Source of the DNA: a virus
Taxonomy: Duplodnaviria; Heunggongvirae; Uroviricota; Caudoviricetes
Virus record (IMG/VR): IMGVR_UViG_3300045988_129107
Direction: 5' to 3' (one strand)
Length of the DNA: 30,668 bases
Below are positions 3,001 to 6,000 of this stretch, one piece after another (position 1 is the stretch's first letter; every line of letters begins with the position of its first letter). Made by a program: the position numbers.

Positions 3001-6000
3001 GGGAAGTTAATAACAACTTTAATTCTGACTCAAGTTCATCAACTCTTTCAGTCAGCTTCTGGATATGGTGAATCAGTGGAACAACCAGACGTTCGTACAT
3101 TACGCCTTCGGCAACAAGGCCATTGCTGGAAATAGCTTCAGGAGCATCATCTTCGTTAGCTGGTCGCCAGTGTACAAACTGAGGGGCAATTTCTCCTACT
3201 TCCTCGGCAATCAATCCGTAGAATCCCCAATCGCGCCTGTCATTTTCGCATTGCGACCTGTACCACACAGGGCGCATCTTGAAAATGAGATCGGCGTGCT
3301 CTGAATCTATCGTCTCTACTGAATGTTTATAGCGGATAGACGATGTTGACCGCAGCACAGACGAAATTGCGGGGTCAGGATTAAGATAAAGGTTTGCCGC
3401 AGCTGTAGTCGTGGCCAAATTCCATAAATAAAACGCTTCACGACCTGTCAGTGGATAAAAATCTCCGCCATAACGACCGCTTTCCAGATCGTTCACTTCC
3501 ACTTTGTTTTTCAGCTTATTATCCACTTCAGTTTTCGTGTATCTGGTACTGATATCCTGCTTTGCACTGTCCATATCAGTCTGAAGCGTTGATACTTTTC
3601 CGCTAATTGATGAAATATCTTCCTTAGCTTTACTGACATCTCCCTTTAGCTTGGTGATATCTCCTGGAATTACTGTCGATGTAGCCATTTTTCTGCCTCA
3701 CATCCAGCCACGAAGTTGATGCTCAACAACAACCGCGTATTTATCGAATATTGACGATTTTTTTGCATCATTAATGATGCGCACGTTTACAAAATATCCA
3801 TCTTCCTTAACACATATCGGTTCGCCATCTTCAGTCAGCTCTCCGGTTTCTTTGTACACGTTACCTATCACGTCAATAAGAATATCATCCTGCATCGACT
3901 CGTCATCATAATAGCCAGCACTCTCCATAAAGGCCGAAAAGTCGGCCCTGTCGGCAAATTTGAGTGTTAAATCTTTCATTAGATTGACTCCCCCACCTGA
4001 GCATCAGTCAATGCCTTGTGCCATATTCTGAAATTCCTGACATGACCAAATAAATGACGTAACCCGGCTGTAGTCTGGCCTCCAATACGGATAATTGCGG
4101 TGTTCTGAATATAGAACCATGTGGTTTTTGTTTCGCTGGATATACGCCCGTTACTTACTGAGCACGTAGACTGATCTGACTTTACACGCATCCCCATAAC
4201 CATTTTTTCAAGCGATGCGTTTTCGTTTACCCGTCTGTTAGCTCCTCCAATATCGCAATAAGGAAATCCGTCGTAATCTGTTGAACGACCGAAGCCAAGA
4301 ATAATAGCCGCTCCGGTTTGATGACCGCCGGTGTCAAAAACACGCGGCGCTGCATTTGGCGTTTTATACCAGTTCTTATGTACCTCACAAAGAACCGTAA
4401 AAGGAAGATTATAAAGATTATTCTTAATGGGAACTGTAACTATATCGCTTGCGCGGGTCGCCGCCGTCGTTCCTGATATAATAAAAGATGATACACAAGG
4501 CCCATTTTCTACTTGTGGGGTGGCCAGATAAATATAGTCACCAGATACGGTTGCCCCGCCCTGCTTAGGAGAATACTGTATCTGAGAACCTATTTTTAAC
4601 TCCCCATCAATTGCCTGAATTGTTGCCTCTGCAAAAATCCATCCGGTAGCTTCGTCCTTTCTGACTCTCGCAGTAATCCTTGAGGCAGCACCGCCTGTCA
4701 TAGTAATTTCAAGCGTTTGTGTATCAATATACGCATCACCAAGAAAAGTTGTTGCGCTACCGTCATATTTATCAAACCGGATACGCAACCTTACCTGCAG
4801 TTCTGTTTTAAAACGACATGAGGTTGTCACGTATTTATTATCGCCTGAGACATCAACTGACTTTGTTGCAGCAATTGATGCCATATTAATGGCTGAGGTT
4901 TGCCCAATCAGAGAATCGTTACAGACAAACTTTCCATAGGTAAAACCAAAACTATCCGTCCCGGTTTCGGGAACATCCATATTTGACGATCGCCCCCAAC
5001 TGGCAGGGTTTTCCGAATTGAGCATGTAGTTTGTTCTTTGCCCCTCAATAAGCAGGCCATCACGTTCAAATCGTGGCTCGTCAATGGCAGCCTCTGTCAG
5101 CACACCAGATTTATTAATATAGGTTGCTTTCGATGCGCGTTTAAACTTTACAACCTTATCGCCAGGCATCGTTATTTCATCATCACCAATAACAATCTTT
5201 TTATATGACGGCGAAAAGCCCGTAATCATATCCAGTGAATCGTTAAACGGTATCCACACATCGGGAAGCGGCTGCAAAACTTGTTTATACGGCTCCGCAG
5301 CCTGGCTTGCATACTCTCTGGCTGCGTCTTCACTTGCTTTTGCAGCCGTCTGGCTTGCAGCGGATGCTTTCGCCGAGTTAGCCGCCGCAGTCTCGCTCGC
5401 CTTTGCGTTGGTTTCACTGGTTTTTGCAGCTTTTTGACTGTTGGCTGATGCAGTGGCAGAAGAAGCCGCCGCACTTGCAGAACCAGCTGCGGCACTCTCG
5501 CTTTGGGCCGCTGCATCCTGACTGTTTTTCGCCGCAGTTTCGCTGGCTTTAGCATTCGTTTCGCTGGTCTTCGCTGCCGTCTGGCTGGACTTTGCGTTAG
5601 TTTCGCTCGTCTTCGCTGCTTTCTGGCTGTTAGCCGCAGCAGTTGCTGATCCAGCTGCTGAAGTCGCAGAACCGGCTGCCGCGCTCTCGCTTTCGGCTGC
5701 TGCATTCTGGCTATTTTTCGCCGCAGTTTCACTGGCTTTAGCATTCGTTTCGCTGGTTTTCGCTGCCGTCTGGCTGGACTTTGCGTTGGTTTCGCTCGTC
5801 TTTGCTGCTGTCTCGCTATTTTTCGCGTTGGTTTCTGATTTTTTAGCTGCTGTCGCGGAATTTGCCGATGCAGTCTGCGAGGCCGCTGCCGCCTGTGCGC
5901 TGTTAGCTGCATTCGTTTCTGAGGTTTTCGCCGCGTTCTTCGATGATGCCGCTGCAGTTTCGGATTTCTTTGCCGCCGCTGCGCTCTGAGAGGCGGCTTC

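Follow-up and report, generated by a model that had tools for sequence, protein, structure and literature searches.

In-frame tandem duplication of a nine-heptad block in the predicted coiled-coil rod of a lambda Stf-type side tail fibre

The window analyzed here is the whole 30,668-nucleotide (nt) stretch of IMG/VR virus record IMGVR_UViG_3300045988_129107 (Duplodnaviria; Heunggongvirae; Uroviricota; Caudoviricetes), and it carries a side tail fibre gene, stf, of the lambda Stf family. The product consists of an N-terminal collar domain, a long Ala- and Ser-rich array of heptads that is predicted to form a coiled-coil rod, and a distal part of a different kind (Table 1). Within the array lies a tandem repeat of 189 nt, and we consider it very probable that this repeat represents nine heptads of the proximal coiled-coil rod of a lambda Stf-type fibre, duplicated in tandem and in frame, and that the block is gained or lost by recombination.

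Table 1. Features of the stf locus (positions are those of the window; aa, amino acids; ORF, open reading frame).
Feature	Position	Strand	Remarks
stf, lambda Stf family side tail fibre gene	3979..6354	minus	791 aa from ATG at 6354; alternative GTG start at 6360
N-terminal collar/attachment domain PF08400	5959..6348	minus	aa 3-132; final ~20 residues overlap heptad array
Heptad array, predicted trimeric alpha-helical coiled-coil rod	5290..6024	minus	aa 111-355; 35 heptads; ~36 nm
Repeat copy A	5635..5823	minus	aa 178-240; 189 nt = 9 heptads; heptads 10.6-19.5 in chosen phase
Repeat copy B	5446..5634	minus	aa 241-303; 84% identical to copy A in chosen phase
Partial copy C	5383..5445	minus	aa 304-324; 3 heptads; ~78% identical to copy B start
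Near-identical repeat core	5525..5598 (partner 5714-5787)	minus	74 nt, 2 mismatches; perfect runs 17, 26, 29 nt
Distal, presumably receptor-binding fibre part	3979..5289	minus	aa 356-791; phrog_5939 matches aa 368-789
Arg/Lys-rich ORF, not a gene	5226..6065	minus	279 aa, +1 frame of stf; compositional by-product of array

An initial interpretation of the window, made without database searches (hereafter the sequence-only reading), had placed the repeat in the shaft of a side tail fibre, and database comparisons bear this out. The Pfam family PF08400 (prophage tail fibre N-terminal) matches aa 3-132 of the 791-aa protein with E = 2.9e-66, aa 3-95 match the N domain of lambda Stf (PDB 9e7m/9mgh; lambda Stf residues 2-94; E = 4.9e-49 by phmmer), and phrog_1419 (tail protein) matches over aa 2-791. 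The genes stand in the order J (7086-10484), lom (PF06316; 6419-7018) and stf (3979-6354), all on the minus strand, an order common to the prophage of Escherichia coli APEC O1, to phages 2G7b and IdasGreatGrand, and to lambda; lambda orf-401 is 58% identical over aa 3-344, coiled-coil region included. The window gene has three of the features by which the Stf family is recognized, namely PF08400, the J-lom-stf position and a long proximal rod after the N domain. The distal half is unlike that of lambda: it has neither a gp37-like tip nor an accompanying Tfa chaperone, no Pfam match was found in the distal 435 aa, and there is no significant similarity to lambda orf-401 past aa 344. It is therefore through its N-terminal module alone that the fibre belongs to the lambda Stf family, its distal module being another one. 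The stf region is 99.9% identical to that of the E. coli APEC O1 prophage (three single-nucleotide polymorphisms, SNPs, in 2382 nt), and the exact 791-aa protein is present on 42 contigs in public data; the prophage that encodes the fibre is lambdoid and nearly identical to one in APEC O1.

The array consists of 35 uninterrupted heptads of the form x-x-A-A-x-x-S. Position 3 is Ala in 25 of them, position 4 is Ala in 32 and position 7 is Ser in 32, and the register is unbroken from aa 111 to aa 355. This heptad, the fundamental period of the array, is absent from the sequence-only reading. An AlphaFold2 (AF2) monomer model of aa 91-370 is helical throughout, with a predicted local distance difference test (pLDDT) score of 80. 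A coiled coil rises by ~0.148 nm per residue; because of this rise, a rod of 245 residues would measure ~36 nm and a single block of 63 residues ~9 nm.

Two groups of characterized fibres resemble the array closely. The rod of lambda Stf occupies the same place, behind the same collar domain and in the same J-lom-stf setting, and keeps the same unbroken x-x-A-A-x-x-S register for 39 heptads; residues 102-393 have been modelled as a proximal trimeric coiled coil on the basis of cryo-electron microscopy and tomography (cryo-EM/ET) and AlphaFold3 (PMC12617516). The lambda rod differs in having no comparable recent 189-bp duplication. The second is the PCoil domain of the E. coli prophage fibres EPclA-D (Ghosh et al. 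2012), which is a low-complexity Ala/Ser/Glu-rich region directly after PF08400, alpha-helical and trimeric by circular dichroism (CD) and size-exclusion chromatography with multi-angle laser light scattering (SEC-MALLS), with an A-x-x-A/S-x-x-S period and with length differences between alleles that are multiples of seven (PMC3368898). The window array is likewise Ala/Ser-rich and placed after PF08400, is built of A-x-x-A/S-x-x-S heptads, and varies among relatives in multiples of seven. There are also differences: the period of PCoil is called 'loose' in the paper, whereas the period in the window is almost perfect, and EPclA-D continue into collagen triple helices and PfC domains, which the window fibre does not. 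The array is homologous to both the lambda Stf proximal trimeric coiled coil and PCoil, and by analogy with lambda Stf and EPclA the window protein would be trimeric (PMC12617516; PMC3368898). Side tail fibres of the lambda Stf type are homotrimers, four to a virion.

A third, weaker likeness is to the depolymerase DpK2 of Klebsiella phage RAD2, of which residues 129-175 (PDB 7LZJ) match aa 229-275 with E = 0.0019. DpK2 contains heptads of the KTSE(D/T)NAKSSE type, as does the window fibre, and its N-terminal region is seen in cryo-EM as an extended triple-helical bundle, for which there is no atomic model (PMC8552709). DpK2 is, by contrast, a tailspike with a beta-helix enzyme domain and without PF08400; the match to its triple helical bundle seems to point the same way as the other evidence for a coiled-coil rod.

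The 189-nt periodicity that the sequence-only reading had reported is recovered when the array is compared with itself. Tandem Repeats Finder (TRF) delimits a repeat at 5477-5817 with a period of 189, 1.8 copies, 90% matches, 0% indels and a score of 584, and finds nested periods of 21 and 42 nt in the same region, while a gapless repeat finder independently yields 189-nt families together with many short families spaced by 21 nt. The best 189-nt stretch at a lag of 189 is 85% identical, against 49-62% at all other multiples of 21 nt; when the 35 heptad blocks were shuffled 300 times, the best identity at lag 189 averaged 61% and never rose above 70%. The 189-nt signal exceeds both chance and the background heptad periodicity. 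The duplication had been called near-exact, with units about 90% identical. The repeat is real and the figure applies to its core, where 138 of the 152 nt of the TRF overlap agree (91%), but 'near-exact' is too strong for full units, which are 84-85% identical (158/189, or 84%, for 5477-5665 against 5666-5854); the longest perfect run common to both copies is 29 nt. The phase of the unit is arbitrary, and the boundaries of A, B and C in Table 1 represent one convenient phase, in which copies A and B differ at 31 sites, 20 of which are third codon positions. The unit amounts to nine heptads (63 aa) in ~2.3 copies. The longer Ala/Ser/Thr-rich array in which the units had been said to lie, as a series of 63-aa repeats, is indeed present, but its fundamental unit is 21 nt (7 aa) and the 63-aa period extends over only the ~2.3 units; a 63-aa super-repeat along the whole array is not supported, as lag-189 identity is at background outside them.

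Comparison of copy number among homologous stf genes, which the sequence-only reading had proposed, shows that one-copy and two-copy alleles are both common. In the closest 120 protein clusters together with the window protein, both ends of the array were anchored in 108 cases; as counted over cluster representatives, 49 of them have the two-copy length of 245 aa and 47 have the one-copy length of 182 aa, which is exactly 63 fewer. Array length is divisible by 7 in 102 of the 108, and the minor forms are short by 1, 2, 4 or 7 heptads. Among sequenced phages, the two-copy length is found in seven (2G7b, HannyBb, Tritos, PhiR63_1, ev207, PhiR49_1 and PhiR46_1) and the one-copy length in IdasGreatGrand, and the array is 15 heptads shorter in phage 21, mEp460, 4A7 and others. 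At least 80% of the 831-nt array region is found at a single place in about 1,002 of 5,426 complete E. coli genomes; since a one-copy subject covers a two-copy query by overlapping pieces, BLAST coverage does not translate into counts of one-copy and two-copy genomes, and copy number was judged from the spans of sampled rows only, all 24 of which (full-coverage rows H71-H94) contain the identical 831-nt span as a single piece. In the wider family, represented at 50% identity, arrays range from 4 to ~100 heptads, mostly in a single register. Two distant members, P0236 (1630 aa) and P0212 (1771 aa), have 70-85 heptads in one register; the array of P0236 contains several copies of a 105-aa (15-heptad) super-repeat with 87% identity, evidence of the same kind of amplification on a much larger scale.

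The junctions of the one-copy alleles indicate how the block was lost. The P0065 gene (219 member sequences) lacks exactly 189 nt of the gene of phage 2G7b and otherwise differs from it by 2 mismatches in 2187 nt, and the start of the deletion is ambiguous within nt 578-596, a stretch common to copies A and B; the breakpoint falls in the 74-nt core (5525-5598). A breakpoint of this sort, within sequence that the two copies have in common, is the mark of recombination or slippage between them, and the deletion must be recent. In IdasGreatGrand the array is A-like up to heptad 16 and B-like from heptad 17, and a heptad-by-heptad comparison reveals the same pattern in P0107; a single-deletion model for P0107 was rejected (758 mismatches; P0107 is one codon shorter at the N terminus). 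In P0109, nine heptads were lost through an event between copies B and C at heptad 23, in which partial copy C took part. Because the one-copy alleles carry different junctions, contraction has happened repeatedly, at least three times. In some two-copy alleles a given variant heptad is present in both copies, or variants have changed places, a pattern suggestive of gene conversion from one copy to the other. Alleles of either copy number are joined to the same distal domain, and both are known in genes that are otherwise identical.

These observations are best explained by the following mechanism. In the trimeric coiled coil that three chains are expected to form, one core position would be Ala and the other Ser, and the rod would keep the receptor-binding distal part at a distance from the tail tip. 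The perfect runs of 17-29 nt between copies are the likely substrate for homologous recombination or replication slippage, which removes, and in principle could add, exactly nine heptads, so that the reading frame and the heptad register are both kept; each block should change the rod by ~9 nm (63 x 0.148 nm). A coiled-coil spacer tolerates any whole number of heptads, and alleles that differ by one block circulate. The sequence-only reading had envisaged both expansion and contraction by slippage or recombination, and this proposal fares differently in its two halves: contraction is documented by the clean 189-nt deletion and by at least three breakpoints, while expansion beyond two copies was not seen.

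Several points weigh against this interpretation. Copies A and B have diverged by 16%, and unevenly, four heptads being 96% identical and the others 62-86%; the duplication may be old, with partial gene conversion, or may have arisen when diverged alleles underwent unequal crossover. We infer expansion beyond two copies and did not observe it: when the first 483 aa of a synthetic three-copy design (854 aa) were used as a query, the full-length proteins among the best 120 matches were all of the two-copy form (788-801 aa), with no three-copy allele, and all of the 100 anchored arrays were 245 aa long. The lengths of six of the 108 arrays (P0034, P0052, P0078, P0085, P0099 and P0101) are not divisible by 7; these off-register arrays, with deletions of, for example, 4, 5 or 12 residues, are mostly singletons or partial sequences, and their lengths could reflect coiled-coil stutters or sequencing errors. 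The counts of 49 and 47 arrays are, moreover, of cluster representatives and not population frequencies. In the AF2 monomer the helix bends back on itself at aa 229-233; we regard this fold-back, which belongs to a model of a single chain, as a monomer artefact, as the Ur-lambda authors likewise did with an AlphaFold3 fold-back of the full-length protein (PMC12617516). Finally, any effect of rod length on adsorption is putative, and the side fibres of lambda speed adsorption but are dispensable for plaque formation (PMC12617516).

The last of these points leads to the most serious alternative, in which the block is real and recombining but the length of the rod has no functional consequence, such that the alleles drift. 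A purely neutral spacer of this kind is quite plausible, if still short of probable. The occurrence of alleles of both lengths alongside the same distal domain and in genes that are otherwise identical, the range of array lengths in the family and the dispensability of lambda side fibres for plaques (PMC12617516) all fit it well, whereas the strongly bimodal lengths (182 or 245 aa in 96 of 108 arrays) and the missing three-copy form could stem from either constraint or shared ancestry. At the opposite extreme, the nine-heptad block might be a selected length switch between 26 and 35 heptads (~27 and ~36 nm), matched to the thickness of O-antigen or capsule and toggled by recombination, and the bimodal lengths, the recurrent deletions and the absence of three-copy alleles would then reflect two favoured fibre reaches; we consider such a switch improbable.

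Less likely again is a programmed contingency locus, at which high-frequency switching of copy number would vary the reach of the fibre in the manner of phase variation. At least one event must be very recent, given the clean 189-nt difference with 2 mismatches in 2187 nt, and there are several independent breakpoints, but the two-copy allele is stable over ~1,000 genomes with as much as ~6% divergence, the 16% divergence between copies lowers recombination, and the neighbourhood of stf has no evident dedicated recombinase, invertible element or diversity-generating retroelement. Classical contingency loci have units of 1-9 nt, in which a change of copy number shifts the reading frame or promoter spacing; the unit here has 189 nt and is always in frame, and so is not a simple-sequence locus of that type. 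That two-copy or one-copy forms are mere products of mis-assembly deserves almost no credence: short-read assembly can collapse a repeat of such a size, and many of the homologues in databases are partial, coming from the ends of contigs, but a unit of 189 nt at 84% identity is within reach of short reads, one-copy alleles lie on contigs of 0.6-1.2 Mb, and the identical span recurs in the sampled complete genomes, as does the two-copy length in the seven independently sequenced phages, so that assembly collapse, a concern raised at the outset, is rejected.

The array also explains a long open frame that overlaps stf. The sequence-only reading had taken the 279-aa Arg/Lys-rich ORF at 5226..6065 (66 Arg and 32 Lys) for an artefact of the repeat, and codon-position and substitution analyses confirm that it exists and is spurious. 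T is found at the second position in one of the 245 array codons, and V, L, I, F and M are absent from the array; because second-position T is nearly absent, TAA, TAG and TGA cannot form in the +1 frame, and the stops that flank the ORF (codons 94 and 376) coincide with the return of hydrophobic residues. Between the window and 2G7b, 35 of the 45 differences fall at stf third positions, with 33 synonymous and 9 non-synonymous changes in the stf frame against 6 and 38 in the +1 frame; between copies A and B the corresponding numbers of codon changes are 16 and 9 in the stf frame and 4 and 22 in the +1 frame. Purifying selection acts in the stf frame, and the +1 frame lacks the excess of synonymous changes expected of an overlapping gene.

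Some database entries favour the contrary view, that the ORF is a real overlapping gene: RefSeq annotates its final 109 aa as WP_373388278.1, a 'phage tail protein' of APEC O1, a cluster of 50 such +1-frame proteins exists in NCBI and UniRef, and the +1 frame is open also in 2G7b and IdasGreatGrand. The openness is, however, trivial in a hydrophobic-free array, the substitutions fit the stf frame only, and the stf ORF of APEC O1 is intact (3 SNPs, no frameshift), so that an overlapping gene is scarcely credible and is rejected in spite of the RefSeq annotation. WP_373388278.1 corresponds to window positions 5226-5555 on the minus strand, and in three further genomes (H74, H75 and H91) the match likewise covers a feature called 'phage tail protein'. 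In RefSeq NC_008563.1 (APEC O1) the intact stf is divided into two 'partial' pseudogene pieces; because the gene is intact, this split is an annotation failure. In lambda (NC_001416), the hypothetical 'orf206b' at 20147-20767 runs antisense to orf-401 within its heptad-array part and is probably another low-complexity artefact of this kind.

Downstream of stf, and on the same strand, the place of lambda tfa is taken by an ORF of 93 aa (3698-3979; phrog_1361, unknown function, no Pfam match) and a gene for a 234-aa fibre protein with a Peptidase_S74 intramolecular chaperone domain (2984-3688); together with the distinct 435-aa distal domain, these two genes set the locus apart from that of lambda. 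In the same slot, phage 2G7b and other prophages have versions of 345-346 aa, and one has a version of 263 aa; compared with these, the window copy seems to be shorter or differently built. Beyond it, at 70-2278 on the minus strand, ORFs of 190, 273 and 273 aa correspond to cdtC, cdtB and cdtA of the type IV cytolethal distending toxin (according to the APEC O1 annotation), directly downstream of the tail-fibre module as prophage cargo.

Relatives of the two ends of the fibre are found in different company. The distal part (3979-5289) is 80-97% identical at the nucleotide level to lateral tail fibre genes of the virulent siphophages vB_EcoS_ESCO3, VogelGryff, tinuso and tunus, and also to a record named Campylobacter phage C13, and the breakpoints of homology are at the ends of the heptad array or inside it; this indicates that the presumed receptor-binding part has been swapped as a module with other phages. 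Most of the array (query 152-831), for its part, is also found in E. coli chromosomes and in a 106-kb plasmid-like record, in genes annotated as 'phage head spike fiber domain-containing protein' that apparently lack the PF08400 N domain. The rod is thus apparently a module common to different fibre types.

Rods that change length by recombination between in-register tandem repeats, with the fold undisturbed, are familiar from the streptococcal M protein, the stalks of YadA-type trimeric autotransporters and the adenovirus fibre shaft. These are unrelated to the window fibre, and in them an effect of length has been demonstrated (immune evasion, or the matching of needle or receptor distance). 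Among phage fibres, our analysis confirms that the recombination of heptad blocks is an ordinary and already described way of varying length: published work already covers the domain, its heptads, its helical and trimeric nature and the variation of its length by multiples of seven (PMC3368898), and an existing PHROG has the two-copy architecture as its consensus. A nine-heptad duplication with mapped recombinant junctions was not found in the passages of PMC3368898 that were consulted; the mapped junctions and the natural isogenic pair are added detail and not a new kind of thing.

For annotation, the consequence is that a hydrophobic-free array misleads gene callers, and ~50 +1-frame entries have spread into protein databases. 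For the study of the fibres themselves, the alleles of 2G7b and P0065 constitute a natural isogenic pair differing by exactly 189 nt, which could be used to test the effect of rod length on adsorption. The biological importance of the duplication is small, and its value is that of a clean documented case in which the length of a phage fibre changes in whole heptads and the register of the coiled coil is kept.

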